NCBI GenBank assembly: GCA_964537215.1
Contig: CAZIBI010000018.1
Location: 16,122-80,121, forward strand
Source of the DNA: an uncultured Ignavibacteria bacterium
GTDB taxonomy: Bacteria > Zixibacteria > MSB-5A5 > CAIYYT01
Reading direction: 5' to 3'
DNA length: 64,000 nucleotides
The position numbers were made by a program, and so were the translations under genes. This document shows positions 15,039 through 55,706 of the stretch, piece by piece. A model generated the notes under the pieces. The model did not search any database, had not been told where the DNA came from, and saw only the letters and a program-made list of their open reading frames with translations. Position 1 is the stretch's first letter; every line of letters starts with the position of its first letter.

Positions 15039-15116
15039 ATCAAAAGATTGCGAAAAATTTCACAACATTCTGCTAAATCGCTTGACAAAGTAAGACGATT
15101 CTTACATTGTGAGCAC

Positions 15117-15551: not shown

Positions 15552-15570
15552 TCATGAATAATGATCAAAG

Positions 15571-15586: not shown

Positions 15587-15614
15587 ATCAAATATCGAAT
15601 TTTCGGGAGTGGTG

Positions 15615-15857: not shown

Positions 15858-18007
15858 TGACCGTTGACGTAGACAAAAAGTCGTTCACTGTCGCGTTGGT
15901 GGGAAATCCCAACTGCGGGAAGACTTCGGTTTTCAACGGACTTGTCGGTGCACGCGCGCACGTCGGGAACTATCCGGGCGTGACAGTGGAAAAACGCAGT
16001 GCGACGCTTACTCGCGGCGGACTGCAGATCGAATTTGTCGATTTGCCGGGAGTGTATTCGCTTTCAGCGGCGACTCTGGATGAACGCATCGCCCGCAAAT
16101 TTATCCTGCACAACAAGCCCGACCTCGTTGTCAATGTCATCGACACCGGCAATCTCGAACGCAATCTCTATCTCACCGCGCAGGTGATGGAGATGGGCGT
16201 GCCGATGCTCTTCGTGCTGAACATGTGGGATGAAGCGCAGAAGCAGGGCATCGTCGTGAACGAGGAGAAACTTTCGCGGATGCTCGGCGGACCTTTGGTC
16301 AAGACTGTCGCTCACAAGGGCGAGGGTGTCAAGGATCTGCTGGATCTGACCGTGAAGTTCTTGCAGGACCGCGAGGCCATGGTCACTTTCGCGCCGCGCG
16401 TCAAATACGGCGGCGAGATCGACCGGCAGATTGCCGCGATAACGCGCACAGTCGGATCGACCAGTTGCAACACATTACCGCCGCGCTGGTACGCAGTCAA
16501 TCTGCTTGAGAATACAGTGAATATCGACGACTTCGCCAAACCGACGGTCGAAGAGCGCGAGTTGATTTTCAGTCAGGTTGCCGATTCCAAGAATCGGATC
16601 AAAAAACAAATGGGGCATGAGTCGGACACGGCGATTACGGATGCGCGCTATCGTTATATCGGCGATGTTCTGGATACGGCTGTTAATCGCGGCCGGGACA
16701 ATCGCATGCAGTTTTCGAACCGGCTCGATTCGATCCTGACGCACAAGTATTTCGGCTATCCGATTTTCCTGTTCTTCATGTGGTTGATATTCCAGGCGAC
16801 ATTCATGATCGGGCAGTATCCGGCGGAGTGGATCGACACCGGTGTCGGAGCACTGCAGGGACTTGTATCAGGATTGCTGCCGGCGGGGGTGTTAAACGAT
16901 TTGATAACTGACGGCATGATCGGCGGCATGGGCGCCGTGCTGGTGTTCCTGCCGAATATCATGATATTATACCTTGGCATCGCCGTGATGGAAGATTCCG
17001 GCTATATGTCGCGGGCAGCGTTTATGATGGATCGCTTCATGCGTGTGCTTGGGCTAAACGGCAAGGCGTTCATTCCGCTGCTAATGGGATTTGGCTGCAA
17101 TGTCCCGGCAATTATGGCGACGCGGACGCTCGAATCGCACCGCGACCGTGTGTTGGCGGTATTGATTATTCCGTTCATGTCTTGCTCGGCGCGGCTTTCC
17201 GTTTACGTGCTGTTTTGCGGAGCGTTTTTTGCCGGTCATGCCGGTAATGTGATTTTCAGCCTGTATTTACTGGGTATCGCGGTGGCGGTCGGGTTTGGGC
17301 GATTGCTCAAGCACAGCTTGTTCAAAGACGACACTGCACCATTCTTCATGGAGTTTCCGCCATATCGCCGGCCCACTTTCAAAGCCGGCCTGCTGATGAT
17401 GTGGGAGCGGGCGAAGATCTACTTAGGCAAGATCGGCGGCGTGATATTGGTAGCGTCGATCGTGATTTGGTTCCTCGGAGCATTTCCGCGCATCGACAGC
17501 TACTCGCAGGATTACGATACGCAGATCGCGCAATTGCAACAGCAACCGACGGAAGCTGCCGGCGAGCAGATCGTCCATTTGCAAAGCCAGATGAAGATTG
17601 AAGAGATCCAGCACTCGTACATTGGCAGACTGGGTAATTTGATTCAGCCGATCATCGAGCCGTTGGGATTCAACTGGCAGATGGGGATCGCGCTGATTAC
17701 GGGATTTGTTGCGAAAGAAATCGTCGTGTCGACACTGGGTGTGCTCTATCAACTCGGTGAGGATGTCGACGAGTCGTCTACTTCGCTAATGACGATTATC
17801 AGCGACCCGTCGGGCGGAATCTCGCCGTTGGTGGCGTACGCCTTCTTAGTGTTCGTCCTGCTCTATACGCCGTGCCTGACTGTGATGGCGGCGATGAAAC
17901 GCGAAATCGGCGCCAAGTGGATGTGGTTTGGGATGTCGGTGCAGTTGGTGATTCCGTGGATCGTGGCGTTCGCTATTTATCGGATCGGGATGCTAATCGG
18001 GATGTAA
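15854..18007 (+). CDS. feoB: Ferrous iron transport protein B
   Basis: 717 aa. N-terminal G-domain 'VALVGNPNCGKTSVFNGL...GNYPGVTVEK'. Followed by a polytopic membrane domain with the conserved FeoB gate region. Confidence 0.95.
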   Translation: MMTVDVDKKSFTVALVGNPNCGKTSVFNGLVGARAHVGNYPGVTVEKRSATLTRGGLQIEFVDLPGVYSLSAATLDERIARKFILHNKPDLVVNVIDTGNLERNLYLTAQVMEMGVPMLFVLNMWDEAQKQGIVVNEEKLSRMLGGPLVKTVAHKGEGVKDLLDLTVKFLQDREAMVTFAPRVKYGGEIDRQIAAITRTVGSTSCNTLPPRWYAVNLLENTVNIDDFAKPTVEERELIFSQVADSKNRIKKQMGHESDTAITDARYRYIGDVLDTAVNRGRDNRMQFSNRLDSILTHKYFGYPIFLFFMWLIFQATFMIGQYPAEWIDTGVGALQGLVSGLLPAGVLNDLITDGMIGGMGAVLVFLPNIMILYLGIAVMEDSGYMSRAAFMMDRFMRVLGLNGKAFIPLLMGFGCNVPAIMATRTLESHRDRVLAVLIIPFMSCSARLSVYVLFCGAFFAGHAGNVIFSLYLLGIAVAVGFGRLLKHSLFKDDTAPFFMEFPPYRRPTFKAGLLMMWERAKIYLGKIGGVILVASIVIWFLGAFPRIDSYSQDYDTQIAQLQQQPTEAAGEQIVHLQSQMKIEEIQHSYIGRLGNLIQPIIEPLGFNWQMGIALITGFVAKEIVVSTLGVLYQLGEDVDESSTSLMTIISDPSGGISPLVAYAFLVFVLLYTPCLTVMAAMKREIGAKWMWFGMSVQLVIPWIVAFAIYRIGMLIGM

Positions 18008-30158: not shown

Positions 30159-30638
30159 TTAGCCGGCAGCCATCATTCCTTCGACATTCTTGATATGTCC
30201 CATTTCGAATTGGCTTAGGTATTCGAAGGTCTTACGAACGTCCTCTTCCTTGGAGACTTTGGCTGCCTTTGAATAGAGCTCATAAGCTTCCTTTTCGAGT
30301 TGCAGGGCGATATCGAGAATTTCGGACTTTGACTTGGCGGCTTTGACCTGCGCAATGCGCTGGACGTGCTTGTCGCCCATCGATTCATCGATAAGCGGCA
30401 GTTCGTCGCGATTCATGATGTCGCGGTAAGTGACCCATTTTTCTGAACGAACGTGCAGATCGTACTGGTGTTCGAGGGTCAGGAAGTGCTTGCGCTCTTC
30501 ACCGGCGAAGTGGAGCATAGTGGTTTTGACGCCTTGGTCGGCTATCTTTTCGGCACCGAGCCGATAGAAGACGTAGGCTGCAATTTCGGCTTGAATTCCT
30601 GCGGTTAGGAACCCAAGGGCTTCGGGGCTAATAGTCAT
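30159..30638 (-). CDS. Ferritin-like / rubrerythrin-like diiron-fold protein
   Basis: 159 aa. SD GAGGT upstream. Paired E..H-type helices ('AGEERKHFLTLEHQY', 'LQLEKEAYELY', 'SQFEMGHIKN') are consistent with a ferritin-like 4-helix bundle. Specific family not resolved. Confidence 0.5.
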   Translation of the reverse strand: MTISPEALGFLTAGIQAEIAAYVFYRLGAEKIADQGVKTTMLHFAGEERKHFLTLEHQYDLHVRSEKWVTYRDIMNRDELPLIDESMGDKHVQRIAQVKAAKSKSEILDIALQLEKEAYELYSKAAKVSKEEDVRKTFEYLSQFEMGHIKNVEGMMAAG

Positions 30639-33494: not shown

Positions 33495-35282
33495 TCATGC
33501 GCCGCGCGTCACTTCCTGATCTTGATACTGAAGTTGATAGAGTCGCCAATATATTCCCCGCAGTTTCAGTAGTTCTTCGTGCTTGCCTTGTTCGACAATG
33601 CGGCCTTTGTGATATACCAAAATTTTGTCTGCCTCTTTGATTGTAGAGAGGCGGTGCGCAACGATCAGCGAAGTGCGGCCCTCAAAGAGTTTCTGGATTG
33701 CTTTCTGGATGATCGTCTCGGTTTCGTTGTCGACAGATGACGTCGCCTCATCGAGAATCAACACGCGCGGATTGTAGGCCAGGGCTCGCGCAAAACTGAC
33801 TAGCTGGCGTTGGCCAACCGAAAGCGATCCGCCGCGTTCGCCGACTTTGTGATCGAATCCATTTTCGAGGCGGTTGACAAACGGCAACAGCCCGACACGT
33901 TCGGCAGCCGCGACCAATTGTTCTTCCGTGATATCCTCGTTGCCCAATGTGATGTTCTCGCGAATGGAGCCGGAGAAGAGGAATACATCCTGCAGAACCA
34001 AACCGATTTGTTCGCGGACAAATTGCGGATGCAATTCGCGGATATCGATGTTATCGAATTTGATGGCGCCGCTGTTGATATCGTAGAAGCGGCATATCAA
34101 AGAGACGGATGTCGTTTTGCCGGAACCGGTCGCGCCCACGAGGGCGACCTTTTCGCCGGGACGAATTTGCAGATTTATGTCGTGCAGGACCTGGTGGTCT
34201 TTGTTATAGGCGAAATTGACGTTCTCGTAAGAAATCGCGCCGGAGAAATTCGGAATCGTCTTGGGATCTGCCGGCACAGTAATATCCGACTTGGTATCGA
34301 GAATATTGAATACGCGCTCGGCGGCCGCCATGGCCGACTGGAGAATATTGTATTTTTCCGCAAGGTCACGAATCGGGCGGTAGAACATTTCGACATATTG
34401 AATAAATGCGACTAAAGTTCCGAAACTGATAGCCTCCTGCACAACCTGGCCGCCGCCATACCAGACGATTAGGGCAAGACTTATGGCGCCGATCAGTTCG
34501 ACGATCGGGAAGAAAACGGCATAATACAAAATCGAGCGTTTGTGCTGATCCATCAATTCAGTATTAACCTTCTCAAACCGCGCCATCGTCTTGCGCTCCT
34601 GCACAAAGTTTTGGACTTCGTTGATGCCGGCGAGGTGCTCCTGCGTGAAGGCATTGAGTTTGGCGATCATGATGCGGATTTCGCGATACGAATCGCGCAC
34701 GCGCTTGCGGAACACAAAGGTCGCGCCAATAATTAGCGGCAGGATGATAAACGTGACCAACGATAGCTTGGGCGAGAGAATCATCATCACGACGACGATG
34801 CCGGCCAGTGTGACGATGTTGCCGAGAATGTCGACCACACCGGAGGCGAACATTTCGTTGAGTGCGTTGACATCCGAAGTGACGCGGGTTAGAAGACGGC
34901 CGGAAGGATTCTTGTCGTAAAATCCAAGATGCATCGATTGGATATGCGCGAATAGCTTTTGCCGCAAGTCGTACATCGCGCTTTGGCCGATCCACTCCAT
35001 GATGCGGATTTGACCATAGCCGGTGAGAAATTCGACAAACATGATGACGAGCAATTGAATTGCTATGATGATGAGCCCGTCGGCGTCGCCGATGGCGATG
35101 TGCTCGTCGAATGCGACCTTGATCAGATACGGGGTGGCCAACTGTGCGACCATGGCGACCAAAAGAAGCAACAATGCGAGACCGACGTAAATGCGATACG
35201 GGCGCAAGTACACAAGCAGGCGCCGCATTAGTTGGGCGTCGTAGCCTTTGCCGAGTTTGTCTTCGTCGCGATAGTCTTGCAT
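33495..35282 (-). CDS. ABC exporter, fused permease-ATPase (type I, MsbA-like); half of a heterodimeric pair
   Basis: 595 aa. 6-TM domain plus NBD with 'GATGSGKTT', 'LSVGQRQLVSFARAL', 'LILDEATSSVD'. Its start lies 2 nt after the stop of the upstream paralog. Confidence 0.9.
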   Translation of the reverse strand: MQDYRDEDKLGKGYDAQLMRRLLVYLRPYRIYVGLALLLLLVAMVAQLATPYLIKVAFDEHIAIGDADGLIIIAIQLLVIMFVEFLTGYGQIRIMEWIGQSAMYDLRQKLFAHIQSMHLGFYDKNPSGRLLTRVTSDVNALNEMFASGVVDILGNIVTLAGIVVVMMILSPKLSLVTFIILPLIIGATFVFRKRVRDSYREIRIMIAKLNAFTQEHLAGINEVQNFVQERKTMARFEKVNTELMDQHKRSILYYAVFFPIVELIGAISLALIVWYGGGQVVQEAISFGTLVAFIQYVEMFYRPIRDLAEKYNILQSAMAAAERVFNILDTKSDITVPADPKTIPNFSGAISYENVNFAYNKDHQVLHDINLQIRPGEKVALVGATGSGKTTSVSLICRFYDINSGAIKFDNIDIRELHPQFVREQIGLVLQDVFLFSGSIRENITLGNEDITEEQLVAAAERVGLLPFVNRLENGFDHKVGERGGSLSVGQRQLVSFARALAYNPRVLILDEATSSVDNETETIIQKAIQKLFEGRTSLIVAHRLSTIKEADKILVYHKGRIVEQGKHEELLKLRGIYWRLYQLQYQDQEVTRGA

Positions 35283-35284
35283 GA

Positions 35285-37108
35285 TTAGTCGAGCAGCTCC
35301 AGTTCGCTGGAAAGCAATTCACGGCGGATGATTTCGTAGTAGCGGCCCTGTTTAGCGATTAACTCGTCGTGGGTGCCACGTTCGACAATAGTTCCTTGAT
35401 CGAGAACGATGATGCGATCGGCGCGGCGAATTGTCGATGGGCGATGGCTGATTAACAAAGTGGTGATCTGGCCGCGCGCGGCTTTGAGACGTTCGAGGAT
35501 CAGCTCTTCGGTCTGCGTATCAACGGACGAGAAAGCGTCATCGAGAATGAGAAGACCCGGTTGTTTGAGCAAGGCGCGAGCAATCGCAGCGCGTTGTTTT
35601 TGGCCGCCGGACAATGTGATGCCGCGCTCGCCGAGAATTGTGTCATATTTGTACGGGAACGATTCGATTTCATTTTCGAATGCAGCAACCTCGGCAGCCT
35701 CGCGGACTTTGTCCATGTCGAGAGACGGCTGCGAGAGTGCGATGTTGGCGGCGATGGTATCGGAGAACAAGTACGAATCCTGGCGGACATAACCGATCAT
35801 GCCGCGCAAATCGTCGACGGCCATGCGGTTGATGTCAACATTGTCGATGAAGATCGTACCGTCGGGAATTTGATAGCCGCGCAACAGCAGTGAAATCAGC
35901 GTGGATTTGCCCGAACCGGTTGAGCCGACAATCGCGAGGATCTCGCCGGGTTTGACCTCGAAGTCAATATGATGCAGAACCTGTGTCTTGCTGCCCGGGT
36001 AGGTGAATGACAAATTGTTGATGCGCAATGCGCCAGCCGGATGCGAGATGTGCTCGGGATTCTCCGGTGAGACAATTTCAGGGATTTCGCGCAGAAGATT
36101 CTCGATCCGTTCCAGCGAAGCCGTGCCGCGCTGATAGAGAGAAATTACCCAACCGACAGCAAGCATCGGCCAGACCAGCATGAGCAAGTAAGTCATGAAA
36201 GCGACATACTCGCCTTTGGTGATGGTGCCTTTGATGACATCGGAGCCGCCGATGAGAATGACGATTAATACGACGGCACGGACCAAGAAGATGATAGTCG
36301 GCATCAGGAGCGCGCGGACCTTAACGAGATCGAGATTTAGGCGAACGTACTTGCGATTGACTTCCTCGAAACGCTTCTCCTTATTTTTCTCGCGGCGATA
36401 TGCTTTGATGACGCGAATTCCAGACATCGATTCCTGGACAAATGACGAGAGCGCGGAAAAGTGATCCTGAATGCGCATGAAACGGCGATGTGTTTGTTGC
36501 CCAATCTGCCACATGGCGATAGTCAGAAGCGGCAACGGAATCAGCGAGTAGAGCGTCAGGGTCGGCGAAATCTTGATCATGTAGTAGAAGGCGACGATGC
36601 TGACCATCAAAGTGTTGATGATCTGCATCACGGCGGGGCCAATCATCATGCGCACCGATTCGATGTCATTCGACATGCGCGCAATAATATCCCCGGTCGG
36701 CGTGCGCTGGTAGAAAGATGATGACAATTTCAGAAGATGGTCGAAGATTTCGTTGCGCAACTCGAATTCGATATCGCGCGACGCCCAGATGATGGTGCGG
36801 CGGGCGAAGAAACGAAAGATCCCGGCGATCAACGTTACGCCGACAATAGCGAGTGCAAACCAGGGGAGCACGCCGGTAGCGACCATCGACATGGCATGCT
36901 GAAGGCCGAAGTAGGCGTCGGAAGGCGCCCACGATGTAAGGCTGGGGTTTTCCAGCGAGTCGATAGCTTCGCGTAGCAGCCAGGGCGACATGCCGAGGAA
37001 GATATTCGAGCCAGCAAGAACTACGATTCCGCCCAGGAAATACCACATGTATTTCCGGTAGTACTTTCGGAGTGTGTTTTTGCCGCTTTGCGCCGGGGTA
37101 TGAGTCAA
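35285..37108 (-). CDS. ABC exporter, fused permease-ATPase; second half of heterodimeric pair
   Basis: 607 aa. TTG start as listed in the track. 'GSTGSGKSTL', 'LSGGQKQRAAIARAL', 'LILDDAFSSVD'. Confidence 0.9.
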   Translation of the reverse strand: MTHTPAQSGKNTLRKYYRKYMWYFLGGIVVLAGSNIFLGMSPWLLREAIDSLENPSLTSWAPSDAYFGLQHAMSMVATGVLPWFALAIVGVTLIAGIFRFFARRTIIWASRDIEFELRNEIFDHLLKLSSSFYQRTPTGDIIARMSNDIESVRMMIGPAVMQIINTLMVSIVAFYYMIKISPTLTLYSLIPLPLLTIAMWQIGQQTHRRFMRIQDHFSALSSFVQESMSGIRVIKAYRREKNKEKRFEEVNRKYVRLNLDLVKVRALLMPTIIFLVRAVVLIVILIGGSDVIKGTITKGEYVAFMTYLLMLVWPMLAVGWVISLYQRGTASLERIENLLREIPEIVSPENPEHISHPAGALRINNLSFTYPGSKTQVLHHIDFEVKPGEILAIVGSTGSGKSTLISLLLRGYQIPDGTIFIDNVDINRMAVDDLRGMIGYVRQDSYLFSDTIAANIALSQPSLDMDKVREAAEVAAFENEIESFPYKYDTILGERGITLSGGQKQRAAIARALLKQPGLLILDDAFSSVDTQTEELILERLKAARGQITTLLISHRPSTIRRADRIIVLDQGTIVERGTHDELIAKQGRYYEIIRRELLSSELELLD

Positions 37109-39403: not shown

Positions 39404-39518
39404 AACGCTGCCTTTCAACTACTGTCCAAGTCTTTGACCGCGAACACACTACGCTAATGATATCGGCTGCGAGCGCAAGGACATTTGCTTTTCGCGCCTG
39501 GCCGATAGAATAAAACTC

Positions 39519-39547
39519 TTGACGGATAATATCGACCACTGTAATCT
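39519..39547 (+). promoter_or_regulatory. Candidate sigma70-type promoter TTGACG-N17-TAATCT upstream of the Cys-rich peptide gene
   Basis: TTGACG at 39519-39524, TAATCT at 39542-39547, 17 nt spacer. About 38 nt upstream of the start at 39585. Confidence 0.4.
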
Positions 39548-39584
39548 TTAATCAACCATTCTTTACGTGGAGGGAGGTGAGACT

Positions 39585-39788
39585 GTGCGTAAAGTCCTTG
39601 GTATTCTCTTAATCGTTTTTGTCGCCGCATTTATTTTTGGCACCACCAGCCCGGCCGCCGATGCAGGTCCCTGTTATTACAAGTGTAGCTGCACGGGCGC
39701 TCCGCTGAAGTGTTGTGTCAACAACGGCGTCGAAACTTGCAAGCCGGCTGGCGGAGTTATTTACTGCCCGGCCATTATTACTTGCTAA
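39585..39788 (+). CDS. Small secreted cysteine-rich peptide precursor (predicted ~40 aa mature peptide with 8 Cys)
   Basis: GTG at 39585 lies 6 nt after a strong SD GGAGGGAGG; the track's GTG at 39567 lies inside the SD. Signal peptide 'MRKVLGILLIVFVAAFIFGTTSPAADA'. Mature 'GPCYYKCSCTGAPLKCCVNNGVETCKPAGGVIYCPAIITC' has Cys at 8 positions, consistent with 4 disulfides (knottin/defensin-like). Promoter-like element upstream. Confidence 0.55.
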   Translation: MRKVLGILLIVFVAAFIFGTTSPAADAGPCYYKCSCTGAPLKCCVNNGVETCKPAGGVIYCPAIITC

Positions 39789-39890
39789 CTGCAAGCCAGT
39801 GATCCCTTGGGATCATCGGATGCAAAACGCCCCACGGGAGCTCTGATGGAATTGGAGCTTCCGTGGGATTAATTTTGATGGAGTGGAATC

Positions 39891-40487
39891 GTGTTATCAG
39901 TTGCGAATGGCGGGAATGAAACCCGGAAGAAAATTCTTAAGAACATCGGTGTCGGTTTCCTAATCCTGCTGGTTGCGGGTGTAGGCGTGTATTTAGGCAT
40001 GTCGTTTCGGAGCATGCAAGTATCACAGAGCGGGGAATTTTTGCAGAGCGAGGGACCGTCATCAAAGCTGCAAGTCGGCAGCGTTTTTCCGGATCTGCAA
40101 TTGATGACGGCGGATTCGGGCCAAGTTCGCACTGGCGATTTTGTCGCGAACGACGGTTCGGTGTTCATATTCATGGAGACCGGTTGTCCGCCCTGCGAAA
40201 CGATGACACAGAAGTGGCAGGATCTGATTAATGAGGGCGAGATTGCGCGCGACCAGGTAGTCGGAATCAGTTTCGAGGCGCCGGCGCATGTTGCGACCTA
40301 TGCGAAGAAACGCGATCTTACTTTTCCAATCTATGCGGATACCGGCATGGTGTTCTTGCGGGATTATGGAGTGACGGATTATCCGTTGGTGGTCGTTGTC
40401 GGCAAGTCTGGAGCGATCAAGATGTATACCTTTGATGCGCGGGTTTCTTTTGTCGCAGATGAGCTCAAAAGGCAGATGGCGAATTAG
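39891..40487 (+). CDS. Membrane-anchored thioredoxin-fold thiol:disulfide oxidoreductase, TlpA/ResA-like (CPPC active site)
   Basis: GTG start after SD GGAGTGG. N-terminal TM anchor 'IGVGFLILLVAGVGVYLGM'. 'GSVFIFMETGCPPCETMTQKW' is a CxxC redoxin motif in a TlpA-like context. 198 aa. Confidence 0.75.
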   Translation: MLSVANGGNETRKKILKNIGVGFLILLVAGVGVYLGMSFRSMQVSQSGEFLQSEGPSSKLQVGSVFPDLQLMTADSGQVRTGDFVANDGSVFIFMETGCPPCETMTQKWQDLINEGEIARDQVVGISFEAPAHVATYAKKRDLTFPIYADTGMVFLRDYGVTDYPLVVVVGKSGAIKMYTFDARVSFVADELKRQMAN

Positions 40488-43812: not shown

Positions 43813-45219
43813 CTAGTTCTGAATTTCTGCGGTGCGGATCGAATCTGGCGCGATCAGTTGCTCGACGGCGGTGCCGATCAGCGTGTTCGGCGTGACCTCT
43901 TCGATTTTGACTTGGGCGAAATCGCCGGGTTTGGCGCCGGTGTCGGGGAAGACGACGATCTTGTTGCCGTCGTTGCGGCCAAGGAGTTGCTTGGGTTTCT
44001 TGCCGTATCCTTCGACCATGACGTTGAAGGTCTCGCCGAGATGGCGTTGATTGCGATGATAGGCGATGTGACGTTGCTGGTCGACGAGCCGAACAATGCG
44101 GTCGGTCTTGATTTCTTCGGAGATGTCGTCGGGAATCGTCCTTGAAGCCATCGTCTCTTTGCGCTCGGAATACTTGAACATAAACGCCGAATCGAACTGG
44201 ACCTCCTGCATGACATCCATCGTCTCCTGAAACTCAGCTTCAGTCTCGGTGGGAAATCCGACGATGACATCGGTTGTCAGTACGAGTCCCGGAATCAATT
44301 CACGCATGCGATTGGCGAGGGCGACGAAATACTCGCGGGTGTAGGTGCGGTTCATCGCATCAAGAACGCGGTTGGAGCCGGCTTGCAGCGGCAGATGAAT
44401 ATGCTTGCAGGCTTTCGGATTAGTGGCAACGACCTCGAGTAGCGACTCGGGGAAATCTTTCGGGTGCGGCGAGGTGAAGCGAATACGCTCGATGCCGTCG
44501 ACGCGGCTGATCGCGGTGATCAATTTGGCGAAATCGAAGCCCTTGAATTTGTAGGAATTGACATTCTGGCCAAGCAGGGTGACTTGCTTGAATCCGTGAC
44601 CGGCGAGCTGCTTGACCTCCTCGATGACATTGAACGGGTCGCGGCTGCGTTCGCGGCCGCGCGTCATCGGGACGACACAGAAAGTGCAGTAGTTGTCGCA
44701 GCCGCGCATGACGGCAATCCATGCGTTGGTGCCGTGGCGGTTGGTCGGGAAAACGTCGGCGTAGGTTTCGTACTCGGAAAGCGTGAGTTTGAACTCGCGT
44801 TCGCCGGTGTTATGGACGCGGTCGATCATCACCGGAAGCGCTTTATAGGAATCAGGTCCGGCGATCAGGTCGACGCCGGTATTGTCTTCGAGTAGTTCCT
44901 TCTTGAGGTTTTGCGCCATACAACCGAGCACGCCGAGGATCATGCCCTTGTTGAGCTTCTTGATCTGGCGCAGTTCGCCAATGCGCGAACGGATTTTGTC
45001 GTGGGCGTTTTCGCGAATGGCGCAAGTGTTGAGCAAGACGACGCCGGCGCGCTCGACCGATTCGGCGAGGACGAAATCGTTGCGGCGGAGAATTTCGCGC
45101 ACGATTTCGGAGTCGTACTCGTTCATTTGACAGCCATAAGTTTCGACGAAGACGGTTTTGTGCCGCGTCGAATTATCGGTTGCCGGATTACTGTTGCCGT
45201 TTGTCAGTGGCTTGTCCAT
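43813..45219 (-). CDS. miaB: tRNA-2-methylthio-N6-dimethylallyladenosine synthase (radical SAM methylthiotransferase)
   Basis: MiaB-specific UPF0004 motif 'TYGCQMNEYDSE'. Radical SAM 'CDNYCTFCVVP'. C-terminal TRAM domain. 468 aa. SD GAGGAA upstream. Confidence 0.95.
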   Translation of the reverse strand: MDKPLTNGNSNPATDNSTRHKTVFVETYGCQMNEYDSEIVREILRRNDFVLAESVERAGVVLLNTCAIRENAHDKIRSRIGELRQIKKLNKGMILGVLGCMAQNLKKELLEDNTGVDLIAGPDSYKALPVMIDRVHNTGEREFKLTLSEYETYADVFPTNRHGTNAWIAVMRGCDNYCTFCVVPMTRGRERSRDPFNVIEEVKQLAGHGFKQVTLLGQNVNSYKFKGFDFAKLITAISRVDGIERIRFTSPHPKDFPESLLEVVATNPKACKHIHLPLQAGSNRVLDAMNRTYTREYFVALANRMRELIPGLVLTTDVIVGFPTETEAEFQETMDVMQEVQFDSAFMFKYSERKETMASRTIPDDISEEIKTDRIVRLVDQQRHIAYHRNQRHLGETFNVMVEGYGKKPKQLLGRNDGNKIVVFPDTGAKPGDFAQVKIEEVTPNTLIGTAVEQLIAPDSIRTAEIQN

Positions 45220-46164: not shown

Positions 46165-46752
46165 ATGTCGGAACCATTGCACCAAGTTACAGTACTTTTG
46201 GATCGTGTTGCCGGCGGCGATAAGGACGCTGTTGACAGTCTTCTGCCATTAGTTTATCAGGAACTGCGGCGCCTTGCGCAACACCAACTAAAGCAAGAAC
46301 GGAGCGGTCACACAATTAATGCCACTGCGCTAGTGCATGAAGCATATTTGAAGCTGATCGACCAGAAAGATGTCGCTTGGCAAAATCGCGCCCACTTTAT
46401 GGCAATCGCCGCCCAGGCCATGCGCCGAATTCTGATTGATTATGCTCGTCGCCGGTTGGCTGAAAAACGCGGCGGGAGTATCGCTGTTATCACTTACGAC
46501 GAAGAATTGCACGCACGTGAAGCGCGTGCCGAAGAACTAATTGCTATCGACGAAGCGCTTGAGCAACTGCGCAGGCAGAACGAACGGCAGGCTCAAATTG
46601 TTGAATTTCAATTCTTCGGAGGGCTGACTCAGGACGAGATAGCCGAAGTGCTGAAGATTTCTGTTCCGACCGTCCGCCGCGATTGGCGTACGGCCAGGGC
46701 CTGGTTGACTGTTGCACTTGGCGGTTTAGACTCTAATAGTCAATCATCGTAG
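46165..46752 (+). CDS. ECF-type RNA polymerase sigma factor of the Ser/Thr-kinase-associated class
   Basis: 195 aa. Region 2 'ALVHEAYLKLIDQKD'. Region 4 'GGLTQDEIAEVLKISVPTVRRDWRTARAWL'. The N-terminal 'LLDRVAGGDKDAVDSLLPLVYQELRRLAQ' is typical of ECFs paired with STKs. An STK gene follows immediately. Confidence 0.85.
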   Translation: MSEPLHQVTVLLDRVAGGDKDAVDSLLPLVYQELRRLAQHQLKQERSGHTINATALVHEAYLKLIDQKDVAWQNRAHFMAIAAQAMRRILIDYARRRLAEKRGGSIAVITYDEELHAREARAEELIAIDEALEQLRRQNERQAQIVEFQFFGGLTQDEIAEVLKISVPTVRRDWRTARAWLTVALGGLDSNSQSS

Positions 46753-46794
46753 TTTGCCCAAATCTCGTAATCAAAGAAGTTAAGGCTCACGCCT

Positions 46795-49368
46795 ATGGAC
46801 ACTCAGCGCCGTCGACAGATTGAGAATGTTTTTCAAGCTGCGTTGGACTTTCCAGTTGCTGATCGAGAGAATTATCTGCAAAGCGCGTGCGGTGCTGACA
46901 CCGATTTGCTAAAGCAGGTGCGGGCGCTCTTGGCGGCAGATGAAAATCCGCACAGCATTCTCATGGGGCAAGCCGCGGATGCCCTTTCAATATCTAATAC
47001 TGAATCCTTTGAGGGGATGCGAATTGGGGTCTACCGTGTTGCGCGATTGATTGGCGAAGGTGGCATGGGTGTAGTCCTTCTCGCCGAACGTGCAGACGGC
47101 GAGTTTCGACAACAGGTTGCGATAAAGCTGATAAAGCTGGGAATGAATTCGGAAGAAATCATCCAGCGCTTTCAGCGCGAGCGTCAAATTTTGGCCCACT
47201 TGCAACATCCCAACATTGCCAGGCTGCTCGGTGGCGGTGTTGTTGAGGATGGTCGGCCCTACTTTGTTATGGAGTACATCAACGGCAAGCCGATTGATTT
47301 GTACTGCGACGAGCAAAATCTCTCCATCGAACGCCGTCTGCGCCTGTTCCTAAGGGTTTGCGAAACAGTCGCTTTTGCGCAGCGAAATCTGATCGTTCAC
47401 CGTGATCTCAAGCCCAGCAATATTCTGGTGACGGAGGGAGGCGAAGTTAAGCTTCTCGACTTCGGCATTGCTAAAGTGATGAGCGCCGATTCCGGGATCC
47501 ACGAGAATCGCACACTTACACGCGTCGGTATGCGTATTATGACTCCCGAATATGCCTCACCAGAACAGCTTCGCGGCGAACCAGTAACGACTGCGTCGGA
47601 CGTTTATTCGCTCGGCGTAATTCTCTATGAATTGCTGACTGGAGTTTCGCCATTTCGCGGTACCCAACTCCAATCAATGCCGTTCGAAGAGTTGGTCGAG
47701 TCGACCGATCCGGAACAGCCGAGTCATCGCGTACTGCACGATGAGCAAAACCGCGGTTTAGAAACCGATCCGCAGCGGACATGGACGGCGAAAACAAGCA
47801 GCAATAAATCCGATTCGCGGCAGTTGTCGCGGCAATTGAGCGGCGACCTGGATAATATCTGTCTCAAGGCGCTACGACGGGAAATCGAGCGGCGCTATCA
47901 CTCGGCGGAGCACCTTCAAGACGATATCAATCGCTATCTCACGGGCATGCCAATCGTAGCTCGACCGGATACTCTCTCATATCGGGCTTCGAAGTTCTTC
48001 AAGCGGCATCGCCGAACATTGACCGGAGTACTAATGGTCTTTGTCGCGGTTGTGGTTATGATTGGATACTATTCGGTTAAGTTATCGCACGAACGGGACC
48101 GGGCTCGAACAGAAGCCAGCAAGGCGCAGGACGTTTCGCAGTTCTTGTCATCGATCTTTAGTATTTCCGATCCAAACAGTTCCAAAGGAAGATCAATATC
48201 CGCGCGTGAACTGCTGGACTCGGGCGCCGTGCGATTGGAGTCGGAGTTGTCGGATGAACCGGAGATGCGGGCGAACATGCTCCAATTGCTTGGTTCGATT
48301 TATTCCAATCTTGCTCAGTACGACGAAGCTAAGCGTCTGACCCAGAAAGCCCGCGAAATTCGCCGGTCGCTGCATGGGGAAATTGACGGGGATGTTGCGG
48401 CTTCACTCTTCCAGCTTGGTATGATCGAATATGCGAACGGCGAATACGATTCAGCCGAGGCTCACTATCGAGAAGCTTTGGTAGTATCGGAGTCGCTGTA
48501 TGGCGATTTAGATTCCAGCGTCGCCGAAATCAAGAATGACCTTGGTCAGGTCCTTCGCCACCAGGGTAAACTCGGCGAGGCCGAACCGTTTGTCCGCGAT
48601 GCTCTGGCGACTCGCCGCGCCCTTTTCGGCGATGTCCACGCCGATATCGCCCACAGCCTGACACATTTAGGAAGGCTGCTTTGGGAAGAGCACAAATTTT
48701 CGGAGGCCGAGCCACTGCTGCGAGAGGCTGTTGTTATGAGTACCCGGGTACGGGGAAAGTATCACCTTGAAACGATTGCCAGCATGGGAGCACTTGCCGG
48801 TCTATTGTTAAGCATGGACAAACTTGACGAGGCGGAGTTAATGTATACGGATGCGTTAGAGGCGGCCGACCGGTTGGTAGGTAAGAATCACGTATACGGA
48901 GCCGGACTCTCCACGAGCCTCGCTGAGATTGCTTATCGCAAGGGCAACATTGCGCGTTCCGACTCGCTGTATCAACGAGTCTGGAACGTATTCTCGTCGA
49001 ATTTTCCCGAAAATCATCCAAATCTAGCGGCCCCCTTAATCGGTCTCGGCAGAAATTTGCGGGAGGAGAATCGCACCGATTCGGCGCGTGTTTGTTTCGA
49101 AAAAGCTCTGCACGTGCGTCGAACTTCGCTGGGTGAGGATCACTGGCAAACCGGGGTTGCCATGACTAGTCTTGGCGACTGCCTTCGGATACAGGGGCAC
49201 ATGGAAGAGGCCGAGCCGCTATTGAAAAAAGGTTATGCTCTTGTGCTGAATCAATTTGGCGAAACCGACGCCCGGACGAAGAATGCAGCTCGGGCGTTGG
49301 CCGATTTGTACAAGAGCTGGAATAGAAAAGAGGAAGCGGCTAGATTTGAAAAACTGTCCACGAATTGA
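46795..49368 (+). CDS. Ser/Thr protein kinase with transmembrane segment and C-terminal TPR domain
   Basis: 857 aa. Kinase subdomains 'IGEGGMGVVLLA...AIKLIK', 'HRDLKPSNILV', 'DFGIAK', 'PEYASPEQ'. TM helix 'LTGVLMVFVAVVVMIGYY'. About 450 aa of TPR repeats. Confidence 0.9.
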   Translation: MDTQRRRQIENVFQAALDFPVADRENYLQSACGADTDLLKQVRALLAADENPHSILMGQAADALSISNTESFEGMRIGVYRVARLIGEGGMGVVLLAERADGEFRQQVAIKLIKLGMNSEEIIQRFQRERQILAHLQHPNIARLLGGGVVEDGRPYFVMEYINGKPIDLYCDEQNLSIERRLRLFLRVCETVAFAQRNLIVHRDLKPSNILVTEGGEVKLLDFGIAKVMSADSGIHENRTLTRVGMRIMTPEYASPEQLRGEPVTTASDVYSLGVILYELLTGVSPFRGTQLQSMPFEELVESTDPEQPSHRVLHDEQNRGLETDPQRTWTAKTSSNKSDSRQLSRQLSGDLDNICLKALRREIERRYHSAEHLQDDINRYLTGMPIVARPDTLSYRASKFFKRHRRTLTGVLMVFVAVVVMIGYYSVKLSHERDRARTEASKAQDVSQFLSSIFSISDPNSSKGRSISARELLDSGAVRLESELSDEPEMRANMLQLLGSIYSNLAQYDEAKRLTQKAREIRRSLHGEIDGDVAASLFQLGMIEYANGEYDSAEAHYREALVVSESLYGDLDSSVAEIKNDLGQVLRHQGKLGEAEPFVRDALATRRALFGDVHADIAHSLTHLGRLLWEEHKFSEAEPLLREAVVMSTRVRGKYHLETIASMGALAGLLLSMDKLDEAELMYTDALEAADRLVGKNHVYGAGLSTSLAEIAYRKGNIARSDSLYQRVWNVFSSNFPENHPNLAAPLIGLGRNLREENRTDSARVCFEKALHVRRTSLGEDHWQTGVAMTSLGDCLRIQGHMEEAEPLLKKGYALVLNQFGETDARTKNAARALADLYKSWNRKEEAARFEKLSTN

Positions 49369-51299: not shown

Positions 51300-51797
51300 C
51301 TAATCTTCCATCATCGACGAGCCCTCGTAGTCGAACCAACTGATATTGCCGCGGAGAGATTCACGCTCGGCGGCAAGCATATCATAGTGGCCGTCTTCTT
51401 CGGCCGTCAACTCGGCAAAGACTTGGCGAATCTGGGCGTCACCGGCTTTGGCTTCGCCGTCTTTGTAATGTTTGGCGGTGAGGCGTTCGGCCTCCATCGC
51501 CAATTCAATCAAGCGAAATTTATCGGCTTCCGCAAGTGGTCCGTCGCCAAAAGCATTCTTAAAAATGGCGAGGCCCTCGGCGGGGAGATCGGTTACGTCC
51601 TTGCCGACGAATTTCTTGTACAGGGTGCGCAACGTGCGCTCGTGATTGACCTCGTCCATTGCCAGCATTTCGATTTTCTTGCGCGCATCGGGATTCTTGA
51701 CCTGTTGTGCAAGCGTGGAATAGAAATGTTGGCCCTCGATTTCGGTTTTGATGCCGATTTTGATGATGGCTTCGAGTTGCTTATTGACGTCCGTCAT
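51300..51797 (-). CDS. Rubrerythrin-family / ferritin-like diiron protein (no rubredoxin domain)
   Basis: SD AAGGAG 7 nt upstream. Diiron ligand helices 'EIEGQHFY', 'AMDEVNHERTL', 'AMEAERLTAKHY', 'TAEEDGHYDML'. Confidence 0.75.
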   Translation of the reverse strand: MTDVNKQLEAIIKIGIKTEIEGQHFYSTLAQQVKNPDARKKIEMLAMDEVNHERTLRTLYKKFVGKDVTDLPAEGLAIFKNAFGDGPLAEADKFRLIELAMEAERLTAKHYKDGEAKAGDAQIRQVFAELTAEEDGHYDMLAAERESLRGNISWFDYEGSSMMED

Positions 51798-51825
51798 ATT
51801 GGATCTCCTTTATAGATAACAAATT

Positions 51826-52206
51826 TCAATCAGCATTGAGTTTCTGCAGCAGTTCGCTCCAGGCGCGACGCACGATATCAAGGCAGTGCGGTTTTTCGTT
51901 GTGCGAGCCGGCTTGCACGGAAGCGATAGCGGCTTCGGCAAGACCACCCGCATCGACAATTTGGTTGCCGGAGACAGCCTCGGTCAGTTTGGAGGCTGCA
52001 GCGATTGCGACGGCGCAGCCTTGCGAGCGGAACTTGATCGACTCGATACGTGTTCCGGCAACGCTAGCAGACAATTCCAACCGATCGCCGCAGATCTCGT
52101 TCTCAATTTCTACGACCGCGGCGGGATTTTCGACTCGACCAACATTGCGCGGGTGGAGGAAATGATCGACCACTTCGGGCGAGAATGACGAATCGGACTG
52201 CGACAC
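51826..52206 (-). CDS. Fe-S cluster assembly scaffold, NifU/IscU N-terminal-domain family
   Basis: GTG at 52206 lies 8 nt after SD GTGAGGTG; the track start at 52212 is a TTG only 2 nt from the SD. 'HFLHPRNVG' (IscU 'HFENPRNVG'-like). Three conserved Cys contexts 'ICGD', 'SQGCAVAIAAAS', 'KPHC'. Confidence 0.8.
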   Translation of the reverse strand: MSQSDSSFSPEVVDHFLHPRNVGRVENPAAVVEIENEICGDRLELSASVAGTRIESIKFRSQGCAVAIAAASKLTEAVSGNQIVDAGGLAEAAIASVQAGSHNEKPHCLDIVRRAWSELLQKLNAD

Positions 52207-52554
52207 GAGCAAGACACCTCACGTTAAAGGCGACATTGTCGCCAGAGATTACGGATTAATTTAAGCAATTTGGGGCGGAAGTGGGGGAATATTCGCGGTG
52301 AGAAGTATCGACAATCGGGACAAAATGGAGGAGAAATGAAGGTTGACGGGGGAGAAACACACCCCGTCTCCGAGCCTTATTCTTCGGCTCGGAACCACCC
52401 CTCTTGAGAAGGGAACTAACGAGACTCACTGGAAGAAACCGGGTAGCTCAATCTCGCCTCTCTCCGAAAGAGAAAAAGGGCAATCCTTTTCGGGCAAATG
52501 AGTCGCCAGTTTCGACTTGTGGCGGCACTTAGGATTGGGTATTAGTTTGGGGTA

Positions 52555-53226: not shown

Positions 53227-53312
53227 TCGAATTGACTTAAATCAAGGACTCATTGGGCCCACTTTCCGATCCTGACTTTGAAGGAGTTAAGATCCTTCGA
53301 AGGATTGTGAAG

Positions 53313-54446
53313 ATGGTTATGAATAGAGCACGTGATAGCAACAGCGGCGGCGAAAGCACGCCAACCGTTAACTCCAAGCCCAAAGTCACAAAGAACCGTC
53401 AGGCCTCAATCCAGAAATGGCGGCTAGCCGTTCAGGTCGGATTCGCTTTGCTCTGCGTTTGGATCGGGATCGAGATGCACGTTTTCGTGAAGTATCTCGA
53501 ATCGGGCGGATCGACGGCTTTCATTCAACGCCCCCCCGGCGTCGAAGGGTTCCTGCCGATTAGTTCGCTGATGAGCCTGTACTATTTCTTCCTGTCGGGA
53601 GAAATTCATCCGGCGCATCCGGCAGGGATGGTGATTCTCGTCGCGATCATAATGCTGTCGCTGGTCTTTGGGAAGGCGTTCTGCGCGTGGCTCTGCCCGG
53701 TAGGATTAATCTCCGAGGCGCTGGGCGATCTGGGGCAGAAGATATTTCGCCGGCGGATTACGATGCCGCGCTGGCTGGATTATCCGCTGCGGAGTTTGAA
53801 GTATCTGCTGCTGGCATTTTTCGTCTACTCGATTTTCTTCGTGATGGGCAAGTTCGCGCTGCGGGCCTTTCTCGACGGCGACTACAATCTCGTTTCCGAT
53901 ATCAAGATGTACTATTTCTTCGCGCAGATTTCGAAGTTGTCGATGATCGTGATCGGCGCACTAGTGCTGCTTTCGATTCCATTGCGGGGATTCTGGTGCC
54001 GGAATTTGTGTCCGTACGGTGCGCTGCTGGGGCTGCTATCGTTGGCGTCGCCGCACAAGATCAAGCGCAATCCAGTGTCGTGCATTGATTGCGGTAAGTG
54101 TGCGCTGAAGTGCCCGTCGTTTATCAAAGTCGACAAAGTCAAGACGGTCATTTCCGACGAGTGCACTTCGTGCATGGCTTGCGTCGATGTCTGTCCGGTC
54201 GCGGATACACTTGAGGTGAAGTCGCTGGTCACGCGCAAACCGGTGCACAAGCGCTGGGTGGCGATCGCGACGGTGGGGATATTCGTTGCGATTACCGGAC
54301 TCGGAATGCTCACCGGTTACTGGAACAACAAAGTCACGACTGAAGAGTACCTTCAGCATCAGCAGTACATCGAGGGATATGGACACCCGACCGATCCGGA
54401 TGGACTGTCAAGAATGAATCAAAATACACCGGCGCAAAAGCGCTAA
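53313..54446 (+). CDS. Membrane-bound polyferredoxin-like 4Fe-4S protein, NapH/MauN/CcoG family
   Basis: SD GAAGGA 8 nt before the ATG at 53313. TM helices. 'CAWLCPVG' and 'WCRNLCPYG' are NapH-type CxxCP motifs in membrane loops. Two ferredoxin motifs 'CIDCGKCALKCP' and 'CTSCMACVDVCP'. Confidence 0.75.
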   Translation: MVMNRARDSNSGGESTPTVNSKPKVTKNRQASIQKWRLAVQVGFALLCVWIGIEMHVFVKYLESGGSTAFIQRPPGVEGFLPISSLMSLYYFFLSGEIHPAHPAGMVILVAIIMLSLVFGKAFCAWLCPVGLISEALGDLGQKIFRRRITMPRWLDYPLRSLKYLLLAFFVYSIFFVMGKFALRAFLDGDYNLVSDIKMYYFFAQISKLSMIVIGALVLLSIPLRGFWCRNLCPYGALLGLLSLASPHKIKRNPVSCIDCGKCALKCPSFIKVDKVKTVISDECTSCMACVDVCPVADTLEVKSLVTRKPVHKRWVAIATVGIFVAITGLGMLTGYWNNKVTTEEYLQHQQYIEGYGHPTDPDGLSRMNQNTPAQKR

Positions 54447-54467
54447 TCAATAGAAGAGGTTTATCGC

Positions 54468-55706
54468 ATGAGTGAATTAATAAACAACGCCAGCAAACGC
54501 CGAGAATTGCTGAAGCACCTGATATTGCAATTGCACAAGGGCGAGGCCGCCGACCAGGTGCGGACGCAGTTGCAGCGCATTCTTGGCCAGGTACCCTACG
54601 ATGAAGTCATGGCTGTCGAAAAAGAATTGATCGACGAGGGTCTGCCGTTGACGGAAGTGTTGAAGATGTGCGACATCCACAGTGCTGCGCTCAAAGGCGG
54701 AATCGATACTTCGGCGGCCAAATCCGCGCCGGCTGGGCATCCGGTTGATACGTTGCTGAAAGAAAATCGTGCGATCGAATGGGAACTTGAAGGGCTGAAG
54801 AAGGCATACGCGGTGGTGGATTCCGGCGCGACCGGAGATGCGCTCAAGGATGCAGTGGCGCAAGTTCGCTCAAACCTGCACAAGCTATACGATGTCGACA
54901 AACACTACCGGCGCAAAGAGAATCTGATCTTCCCGTTCCTGGAAAAGCACGGAATCACCGGACCGCCAACTGTGATGTGGGGAAAGCATGATCAGATTCG
55001 CGAATTGCTCAAGGCCGCGATTGCGACATTCGAGCAGACGGAGGAGTTCAATGCTGACGAAGCGCGCACATTGGTGGAACTGGTCTATAGACCGGCGTCG
55101 GACGGCATCGAAGATATGATCTTTAAGGAAGAGCAGATTCTCTTCCCGATGTGCATGGACACGCTTTCGGAACAAGAGTGGTGGCAAGTACATAATCAGA
55201 GTCTGGAAATCGGGTTCTGCTTGTTTGATCCGACAGATGATTGGATGCCATCAGGGGAAACTGCTGTTGCGGGCGAAGGCATGAATGATGAAGGGCGGAT
55301 CCAGTTGCCGTCCGGGAGTATGACTCCAACCGAGTTGAATGCAATCTTGAACACGATCCCGTTTGACCTGACCTTTGTGGACAAGGACGATACGGTGCGT
55401 TATTTCACGCAAGGGCGGGAGCGTATCTTCGATCGCAATCGAGCAATCCTGGGACGCAAGGTGCAACTTTGCCATCCGCCGCACAGCGTGCATATCGTCC
55501 AACGGATCATCGAAGACTTCCGTTCGGGCAAGCAATCGCGGGCGCCGTTTTGGATTACGATCAAGGGGCGATTCATTCATATCGAATATTTTGCGCTGCG
55601 CGACAAGCAGGGCGAGTATCTCGGAACGCTTGAAGTCAGCCAGGACTTAACGGACAAGCGCGCGCTCGAAGGTGAACAACGCCTGCTTGAATACATGAAA
55701 GACTAA
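54468..55706 (+). CDS. DUF438 / hemerythrin-like / PAS three-domain protein (putative redox or gas sensor)
   Basis: 412 aa. N-terminal DUF438-like region. Central hemerythrin-like segment ('ENRAIEWELEGL...HYRRKENLIFPFLEKHG...WGKHDQIRELL'). C-terminal PAS-like domain ('LNAILNTIPFDLTFVDKDDTVRYFTQGRERIF...GRKVQLCHPP'). Confidence 0.6.
   Translation: MSELINNASKRRELLKHLILQLHKGEAADQVRTQLQRILGQVPYDEVMAVEKELIDEGLPLTEVLKMCDIHSAALKGGIDTSAAKSAPAGHPVDTLLKENRAIEWELEGLKKAYAVVDSGATGDALKDAVAQVRSNLHKLYDVDKHYRRKENLIFPFLEKHGITGPPTVMWGKHDQIRELLKAAIATFEQTEEFNADEARTLVELVYRPASDGIEDMIFKEEQILFPMCMDTLSEQEWWQVHNQSLEIGFCLFDPTDDWMPSGETAVAGEGMNDEGRIQLPSGSMTPTELNAILNTIPFDLTFVDKDDTVRYFTQGRERIFDRNRAILGRKVQLCHPPHSVHIVQRIIEDFRSGKQSRAPFWITIKGRFIHIEYFALRDKQGEYLGTLEVSQDLTDKRALEGEQRLLEYMKD

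Follow-up and report, generated by a model that had tools for sequence, protein, structure and literature searches.

The locus studied here raises the question why a gene for a short cysteine-rich peptide stands directly in front of a gene for a membrane-anchored thiol:disulfide oxidoreductase, and whether the second product acts on the first. It is located at positions 39519 to 40487 of a 64,000-nucleotide stretch of contig CAZIBI010000018.1 from an uncultured bacterium of the Zixibacteria (this whole stretch is called the window in the following). A gene for a 67-amino-acid precursor, the mature part of which contains eight cysteines, is followed on the same strand and after a gap of 102 nucleotides by the gene of a 198-amino-acid redoxin. 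The analysis shows that the two genes are real and that conservation extends to their operon layout and their pairing, to the regulatory elements and to the cysteine framework. We consider it probable that a dedicated thiol:disulfide oxidoreductase here serves a four-disulfide β-sheet mini-protein, the two being encoded as a two-gene operon. Most likely, the redoxin folds the disulfides of the peptide or maintains them.

A preliminary description of the locus, made from the sequence alone, had listed a precursor gene with a strong Shine-Dalgarno site, a promoter-like sequence, a signal peptide and an eight-cysteine mature part of about 40 amino acids, as well as a TlpA/ResA-like CPPC redoxin with a membrane anchor encoded 102 nucleotides downstream. 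All these features were recovered:

39519 to 39547, forward strand: promoter, read directly from the sequence, with the -35 box TTGACG (39519-39524), a 17-nucleotide spacer and the -10 box TAATCT (39542-39547)
39569 to 39580, forward strand: Shine-Dalgarno site GGAGGGAGGTGA, 4 nucleotides upstream of the GTG start codon
39585 to 39788, forward strand: gene for the 67-amino-acid precursor of the eight-cysteine mini-protein, GTG start, stop codon at 39786-39788, product MRKVLGILLIVFVAAFIFGTTSPAADA followed by GPCYYKCSCTGAPLKCCVNNGVETCKPAGGVIYCPAIITC
39585 to 39665, forward strand: predicted Sec-type signal peptide of 27 amino acids, with MRK, a hydrophobic core and an A-D-A cleavage motif
39666 to 39785, forward strand: mature peptide of 40 amino acids, GPCYYKCSCTGAPLKCCVNNGVETCKPAGGVIYCPAIITC, with eight cysteines, one of them the last residue
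39790 to 39824, forward strand: first hairpin, directly 3' of the stop codon, from the minimum-free-energy fold of the spacer (z = -4.8)
39831 to 39877, forward strand: terminator-like hairpin, 17-bp stem (39831-39867) and then ATTAATTTTG
39891 to 40487, forward strand: gene for the 198-amino-acid membrane-anchored TlpA/ResA-like thiol:disulfide oxidoreductase, GTG start, GGAGTGG upstream
39942 to 40001, forward strand: signal-anchor IGVGFLILLVAGVGVYLGM, preceded by RKKILK, read from the sequence
40185 to 40196, forward strand: active-site CPPC, residues 99-102, in the context METGCPPC

The small open reading frame is conserved in related genomes and carries a coding signal. Between the Zixibacteria loci the pairwise ratio of nonsynonymous to synonymous substitution rates (dN/dS) of the peptide gene is 0.03-0.13 at a dS of about 1, which argues for a real gene under strong purifying selection. 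Antisense open reading frames of up to 116 amino acids run across the peptide gene (39454-39794 in the window and 7959-8309 in L016/L017, all on the reverse strand). They were ruled out as coding sequences, since the synonymous-rich divergence fits the frame of the peptide. A gene picker that prefers the longest open reading frame took the antisense frame over the peptide gene in several loci, and this choice may explain the poor annotation of the family. In other cases gene callers overlook the gene, as happens often.

Recurrent adjacency to redoxin genes had been set beforehand as a test of the proposed pairing. Approached from the peptide side, 28 loci with distinct mature peptides were reached. 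A redoxin gene lies directly downstream, on the same strand and after a gap of 25-170 nucleotides, in 19 of these loci, which come from several phyla, and is missing from this position in the other nine. Every locus of the Zixibacteria type that was long enough to be judged has the redoxin gene immediately downstream on the same strand. When the look-up was started from the redoxin, with two redoxin clusters, the peptide gene was always found immediately upstream. The pairing spans at least six unrelated neighbourhoods and persists down to about 33% redoxin identity, and clustering of the flanking genes left the peptide and the redoxin as the sole invariant elements. The two-gene module of the preliminary description can thus be retained as a conserved operon pairing that is absent from some subclades, while the relation of enzyme and substrate is suggested by the operon structure. 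The following neighbourhoods were distinguished:

GH57 gene and two ATP-binding cassette (ABC) exporter genes: window, L015-L019
GH57 gene and a different downstream set: L001, L020-L022
PspA gene: L005
SnoaL and menaquinone genes: L008/L009
sugar-nucleotidyl transferase (NTP-transferase) gene: L010
S49 peptidase, subtilase and SDR genes: L023/L024
DUF748 gene: L025
AsnA and sulfate-activation genes, in a metagenome-assembled genome of the Gemmatimonadota: L027

A hidden Markov model built from the Zixibacteria redoxins gave 120-230 bits on linked redoxins from elsewhere, including those of the Gemmatimonadota genome and of uncultured metagenome bacteria, and less than 5 bits on two unlinked AhpC-TSA proteins of these loci, both of them peroxiredoxins. 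By their profile scores the linked redoxins thus appear to form one subfamily, the comparison outside it consisting of these two peroxiredoxins. In two lineages unlinked AhpC-TSA proteins are encoded within 1-2 kb of the pair, a 1-Cys peroxiredoxin (L023 9009-9710) and a secreted Tpx-like protein (L025 3485-4087), and both fall outside the subfamily of the linked redoxins. The enzyme is less well conserved than the peptide, pairwise distances averaging 0.59 among the redoxins and 0.39-0.42 among the peptides.

The start signals of the peptide gene are conserved as well. Within an alignment of 8 diverged loci (A5) the -35 sequence CTTGAC is invariant and the neighbouring bases drift; the -10 box is kept as T[AT]A[TA]C[TCG] at the 17-nucleotide spacing. 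This promoter was not reported by a generic promoter scanner, because the -10 box is weak and matches the consensus at 3 of 6 positions. The core of the Shine-Dalgarno site, GGAGGTGA, is invariant in all eight aligned loci and the full site nearly so, with an A at one position in two loci. GTG is the start codon in the window (39585) and in L018 (8001), ATG in the remaining aligned loci, the Shine-Dalgarno site being the same. Further upstream, in the divergent intergenic region between the GH57 gene and the peptide gene, the blocks ATATCGGC and ATTTGC are conserved in the same alignment (window 39461-39490); they could be an operator or could belong to the promoter or 5' untranslated region of the GH57 gene.

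The spacer between the two genes is structured. An equivalent of the first hairpin was found in related Zixibacteria loci. The second, terminator-like hairpin, which separates the peptide gene from the redoxin gene, likely acts as an attenuator or stabilises the mRNA. For 11 Zixibacteria loci RNAalifold gave a consensus stem of 11 pairs, five of which show compensatory double changes. Each folded spacer of the dereplicated pairs (71-167 nucleotides) contains a strong GC-rich hairpin that differs in sequence; in the high-GC lineages the hairpins are unrelated in sequence and have no clear U-tract. A search of the locus against Rfam returned no riboswitch and no known RNA family. Because the promoter, the Shine-Dalgarno site and the intergenic hairpin are conserved, the two genes are best read as a peptide-then-enzyme operon that is maintained in the Zixibacteria and in neighbouring uncultured phyla. 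Strong start signals, a short structural gene, a hairpin and then an accessory gene form the layout expected where far more of the first product is required than of the second.

The second product matches Pfam AhpC-TSA (PF00578, 1.7e-15, 57.5 bits at a cut-off of 26) and Redoxin (PF08534, 5.4e-11, 42.9 bits at a cut-off of 26.6), and an orthologue is named 'TlpA disulfide reductase family protein [Ca. Zixiibacteriota]' at NCBI. A profile of the redoxin subfamily found ResA in the PDB with 7.7e-11, and also Etrx1/2 and StoA. The basic stretch and the 19-residue hydrophobic anchor occur in 21 of 21 aligned redoxins, in which G32 and G36 are invariant; by the positive-inside rule the redoxin domain should sit in the periplasm. 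Residues C99, P101 and C102 and the cis-proline P165 are invariant in the redoxin alignment (A6). All linked redoxins keep the N-terminal anchor, a C-x-[PG]-C site, W109, an FP...D motif and the cis-proline, and other family members have CAPC, CSPC, CEGC or CDGC at the active site.

The redoxin proved distinct from ResA and CcmG. Its scores stay far below the NCBIfam cut-offs (ResA 36.3 against 170, StoA 21 against 210, BCP 33 against 140, PrxQ 20 against 260). Among the about 50 open reading frames of the window and in the annotated related loci no ccm or res, cytochrome c, DsbA/B, DsbD/CcdA, Sco or Msr genes were found, and the window contains no open reading frame with a CxxCH motif. A role in cytochrome c maturation was rejected because of the missing CxxCH frames and ccm genes and the low ResA score. 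A peroxiredoxin of the BCP/PrxQ or AhpC type was rejected as well, as the site is CxxC and not PxxxT/SxxC and the BCP and PrxQ scores are below cut-off.

The peptide was unlike any named family in the preliminary description, and the searches bear this out. Pfam and NCBIfam gave no family match for the peptide of the window, the best match in a PDB sequence search had an E-value of 0.78, and 74 family members compared with Pfam at E <= 5 returned signal-peptide noise only, with no toxin, knottin or defensin match. We found no description of this eight-cysteine family in the literature. Judged from these comparisons, the peptide belongs to an undescribed family. A first homologue search collected nine clusters (P0001-P0009) of 65-81 amino acids and 52-90% identity in which the cysteines are kept. 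Profile searches then gave 40 matches, all of 51-117 amino acids, in 1.84 billion representatives and 121 clusters, all unnamed or 'hypothetical', in a set of 5.8 billion. The family comprises about 150 sequence clusters; named sources are Candidatus Zixiibacteriota, Krumholzibacteria, Gemmatimonadota and Thermoanaerobaculia, and one contig is labelled Zixibacteria_JADJGC01. Two scans of the IMG/VR viral contigs returned no relatives of the peptide, and a phage-borne element was rejected on this ground. A RiPP (ribosomally synthesised and post-translationally modified peptide) precursor was rejected too: no RiPP enzyme was found in the window or the annotated related loci, and no radical SAM, MNIO, YcaO or LanM-type gene stands beside the pair in any locus.

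The leader keeps its n-h-c layout and an AxA motif throughout the family, and that of the window lacks a twin-arginine motif, a lipobox and a double-glycine site. A Sec-type leader that is not a twin-arginine leader argues against a pre-assembled cofactor. The framework C-x3-C-x-C-x5/6-CC-x3-8-C-x7-10-C-x4/5-C is present in 134 of the 148 collected sequences, its final cysteine standing at, or nearly at, the C-terminus, and all eight cysteines are invariant in an alignment of 74 sequences. In the six-cysteine variants the two missing residues are exactly Cys III and Cys VIII, and this joint loss suggests a III-VIII disulfide that would staple the C-terminus. One aberrant sequence without Cys II and IV is weak evidence for a further pair. 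Both the six-cysteine Zixibacteria variant (L049 5001-5198) and a ten-cysteine Thermoanaerobaculia variant with an extra N-terminal cysteine pair (L052 5001-5231) have no adjacent redoxin gene.

AlphaFold2, run on the mature 40-mer with the 74-sequence alignment, predicted a three-stranded antiparallel sheet (residues 3-7, 13-19 and 22-27) without any helix, at a mean predicted local distance difference test score (pLDDT) of 83, with 83-90 in the sheet core. The model of the precursor has a helix at residues 2-20, corresponding to the signal. The preliminary description had compared the cysteine density with that of knottins and defensins. Fold searches lend no support to this likeness: they gave no knottin or defensin match and no match of the peptide to any known fold. 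The CSαβ defensin fold was excluded, as the model has three strands and no helix.

Taken together with the layout of the operon, these features can be arranged into the following sequence of events. A strong promoter and ribosome-binding site would yield an abundant transcript for the 67-amino-acid precursor, which would leave the cytoplasm through Sec and be cut after ADA. The released 40-amino-acid peptide would then form a small three-stranded β-sheet held by four disulfides, with both termini pinned, one by Cys3 and the other by the C-terminal cysteine. Owing to the conserved hairpin past the peptide gene, only part of the transcription would reach the redoxin gene, the product of which would be anchored in the inner membrane, its CxxC site facing the periplasm. 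There the redoxin would act on the cysteines of the peptide as a dedicated folding catalyst, either by forming disulfides or by proof-reading and isomerising non-consecutive ones such as III-VIII. The hosts appear to be anaerobe-like and perhaps lack the general Dsb machinery, so that a folding catalyst reserved for the peptide would be useful to them. What we infer from the conserved features of the pair is the location in the periplasm, the presence of the disulfides, a direct relation of enzyme and substrate and its redox direction.

Several findings weigh against this scheme. Nine of the 28 distinct peptides have no neighbouring redoxin; they comprise the CTYKCICSVPHRCC...CTQ clade, the short-loop CCGTxC clade, the six-cysteine Zixibacteria variant and the ten-cysteine Thermoanaerobaculia variants. 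Thus the peptide can exist without a linked redoxin, or with one that is encoded elsewhere. The distances of peptide and redoxin correlate with r = 0.82-0.86, a value that shared ancestry alone can explain, and the mirror-tree correlation was therefore set aside as evidence of co-evolution. The dipeptide within the CxxC site varies among the redoxins (PP, AP, SP, EG, DG). Finally, the characterised relatives that were found, ResA, StoA and Etrx1/2, are all reductants, as are CcmG and TlpA, and a purely oxidative role would be atypical of this fold. Because the sequence relatives are reductants, a proof-reading or isomerase role is as plausible as that of an oxidase.

We considered other explanations for the conserved pair. 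The peptide could be a periplasmic thiolate metal binder, such as a buffer or chaperone for Cu(I), Zn or Cd that resembles an exported metallothionein, and the redoxin would then keep its cysteines reduced, much as TlpA keeps ScoI and CoxB reduced. The nearest characterised relatives of the redoxin are indeed reductants, the CxC and CC motifs and a cysteine content of 20% recall metallothionein, and in the Thermoanaerobaculia loci L028/L029 the peptide gene directly follows a CDF cation-efflux gene and lies beside a Csp copper-storage gene. The part of TlpA in copper-site assembly and bacterial copper homeostasis are subjects of reviews (PMC6696091, PMC7558416). Yet the peptide combines these motifs with conserved aromatic residues (Y/F/W) and a confidently predicted β-sheet, which is atypical of metallothioneins, and the variants lose their cysteines pairwise. 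Conserved histidine or methionine ligands are lacking, the H of SVPHKCC being L in the clade of the window, and a metal-related neighbour was seen in one lineage only, neither copper nor zinc genes being found around the pair in the remaining loci; we therefore regard a metal binder as doubtful. A toxin or bacteriocin was among the options named in the preliminary description and is the one that we favour least. The peptide might accordingly be secreted as an antimicrobial, a toxin or a pheromone, the redoxin being its maturation oxidase or a self-immunity factor that reduces toxin remaining in, or returning to, the periplasm of the producer. The bacteriocins pediocin and sublancin have dedicated oxidoreductases, PedC and BdbB. 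The bacteroidetocins are a precedent of the same kind (PMC6671954). In its small size, its predicted disulfide staples and the protection of its two ends the peptide resembles stable extracellular peptides, and a high expression of the peptide with a low expression of the accessory gene, brought about by the hairpin, is typical of bacteriocin operons. Nevertheless, we judge a toxin unlikely: the window and the annotated related loci contain no double-glycine leader, no C39 ABC transporter, no immunity-like small membrane protein and no outer-membrane route. The very low dN/dS and the highly conserved loops between the cysteines are unlike arms-race toxins, no second copy of the peptide was found in the 64-kb window, where its chromosomal neighbours are housekeeping genes, the family is absent from the viral contigs, and its net charge is not consistently cationic. 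Slow evolution with conserved loops, the housekeeping context and the absence of export genes favour a conserved role in binding or structure over a weapon of the bacteriocin kind. Slow evolution and a housekeeping context also suggest that the function is a conserved one in the envelope or in binding, and not that of an arms-race toxin.

The pair might also work as a periplasmic redox relay or oxidant sink, in which the peptide is a diffusible thiol/disulfide carrier or a sacrificial antioxidant and the membrane-anchored redoxin recycles it with electrons that come from the cytoplasm by way of CcdA or DsbD. This would suit a redoxin from the AhpC-TSA/TlpA superfamily of reductants, the high peptide expression implied by promoter, Shine-Dalgarno site and hairpin, the rubrerythrins, hemerythrin and other oxidative-stress genes of anaerobes in the window, and the 1-Cys peroxiredoxin that follows the pair in L023. 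A carrier, however, would not need a rigid scaffold with highly conserved residues other than cysteine, target enzymes such as Msr or a peroxidase are not consistently linked, no CcdA/DsbD was seen nearby, and family members without a redoxin exist, which makes a relay quite improbable. That the two products do not interact at all, the genes being merely co-regulated or kept together by inheritance as two envelope proteins, seems very improbable to us. Most sampled loci are from related Zixibacteria, in which synteny may have been inherited, and the distance correlation is compatible with plain co-inheritance, but the two genes keep their adjacency, order and orientation, and the hairpin between them, where redoxin identity is about 33%, in further phyla and among entirely different flanking genes, with the pair as the only invariant element of the neighbourhood. 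A redoxin dedicated to the folding of the peptide thus remains the explanation that we prefer. Going beyond it, we tentatively suggest that the eight-cysteine peptides may be an ancient and so far unrecognised class of disulfide-knotted mini-proteins of bacteria that do housekeeping work in the envelope, as a binding or inhibitor module or as a thiol or metal buffer, and that have a private oxidative-folding enzyme.

The hosts of the bacteroidetocins and the present hosts are related within the Fibrobacteres-Chlorobi-Bacteroidetes (FCB) group. The bacteroidetocin locus is the closest experimentally supported parallel to the locus of the window. In Bacteroides, deletion of the cluster-encoded thiol oxidoreductase gene beside the bacteroidetocin gene attenuates the activity of the toxin (Coyne et al. 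2019, PMC6671954). The authors propose that this oxidoreductase forms the disulfides of the peptide since Bacteroides lack the general Dsb machinery (PMC6671954). Both systems are Gram-negative and encode an exported cysteine peptide of about 40 amino acids next to a dedicated thiol oxidoreductase. Unlike the present locus, the bacteroidetocin (class IIf) loci encode a leader of the double-glycine type, an ABC exporter with a C39 peptidase and a protein with five transmembrane segments, whereas the present peptide has a Sec leader and evolves slowly. Bacteroidetocins contain four cysteines and the present peptide eight, the peptides show no detectable sequence relation, and the oxidoreductases are likened by the description of the loci.

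With TlpA, ResA, CcmG, StoA and Etrx the redoxin shares the AhpC-TSA and Redoxin fold, the N-terminal anchor, the CxxC site and the cis-proline loop, and StoA also has a CPPC site. Each known member of this group has a narrow set of clients. The present redoxin differs in that it scores far below every curated equivalog cut-off and that its loci contain no ccm, cytochrome, Sco, Msr or sporulation partner genes. To our knowledge, none of the classical TlpA/ResA members has a client candidate in its own operon, as is the case here. Pediocin PA-1 with PedC and sublancin with BdbA-BdbB are similar in that an operon-encoded oxidoreductase secures the disulfides and the structural gene comes first, followed by the accessory genes. 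These systems, however, belong to Gram-positive Firmicutes, have dedicated ABC transporters and immunity genes and form two disulfides; neither PedC nor BdbB is an anchored redoxin of the TlpA type, and there is no homology to the present peptide.

Eukaryotic knottins and CC mini-proteins resemble the peptide in their length of about 40 amino acids, their C...C...CC...C...C spacing, the β-hairpin past the CC and the stapling of both termini. The peptide is bacterial, unlike the eukaryotic knottins, and has eight cysteines, a probable III-VIII bond and conserved instead of hypervariable loops; none of the 74 family members gave a Pfam match to toxins, knottins or defensins. The E. coli enterotoxins STa and STb, like the present peptide, are made as Gram-negative Sec precursors of about 70 amino acids, and their disulfide-rich C-terminal peptide is folded in the periplasm by DsbA. 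They differ by a pro-region and the use of the general DsbA, show no sequence or family match to the present peptide, and are virulence genes borne on plasmids or transposons, in contrast to the conserved chromosomal genes described here.

As a principle, a dedicated thiol oxidoreductase for a cysteine-rich exported peptide is already known. What appears to be new is the peptide family with its eight-cysteine framework and its Sec leader, the anchored partner of the TlpA type, the reduction to a minimum of two genes and the distribution over uncultured phyla. Disulfide-rich mini-proteins, familiar from animals, plants and fungi, are rare in bacteria, and the present peptides are a coherent bacterial family of about 150 clusters from at least four uncultured or poorly cultured phyla that is absent from Pfam and NCBIfam. 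If the tentative suggestion of an ancient class with a private folding enzyme is true, a self-contained unit of a client plus its own Dsb protein would allow one highly cross-linked protein to be made by bacteria that have no general disulfide machinery. The pair would also offer a natural client and enzyme with which the oxidase or isomerase capacity of a TlpA-like fold could be assessed on a four-disulfide peptide where DsbA and DsbB are lacking. The 40-amino-acid scaffold, with stapled termini, tolerance of loop length and a folding partner, has potential for peptide engineering.

The wider surroundings fit an anaerobe-like host. The window encodes two rubrerythrins, NifU, a multi-Fer4 protein, a hemerythrin-PAS protein (DUF438) and a DtxR-like repressor with FeoB (30159-30638, 51300-52212, 53253-55706 and 15048-18007) as well as ferredoxin-like proteins, which suggests an anaerobic or microaerophilic host that is sensitive to iron and oxidants. 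Genes for LptC and a TonB-dependent receptor in these genomes fit a diderm host. MiaB (43813-45219, UPF0004 and TRAM domains) is a tRNA enzyme and is unlinked to the pair. The ABC exporters (33495-37108) consist of ABC_membrane and ABC_tran domains only, lie on the other strand beyond the GH57 gene and are not constant companions of the pair.

About 6 kb downstream of the pair, a gene for an extracytoplasmic function (ECF) sigma factor is followed by a gene for a Ser/Thr kinase with tetratricopeptide repeats (TPR) (window 46165-49368). The same sigma factor and kinase-TPR genes are found about 1.5 kb upstream of the unlinked homologue P0134 (L030 832-3554), and this recurrence may be a coincidence or may indicate a shared regulator. 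The loci L028/L029 (3546-5195) carry the peptide P0125 without a redoxin; the CDF gene lies upstream, the Csp gene (PF03860) is a neighbour, and a gene for a 943-amino-acid β-helix protein follows. In a single Zixibacteria subclade (L001 7115-9370, reverse strand, and the equivalents in L020-L022) a 751-amino-acid fusion of a Peptidase_M50-like part and an HlyD-like barrel-sandwich part is encoded downstream of the pair, together with an open reading frame of 105 amino acids.

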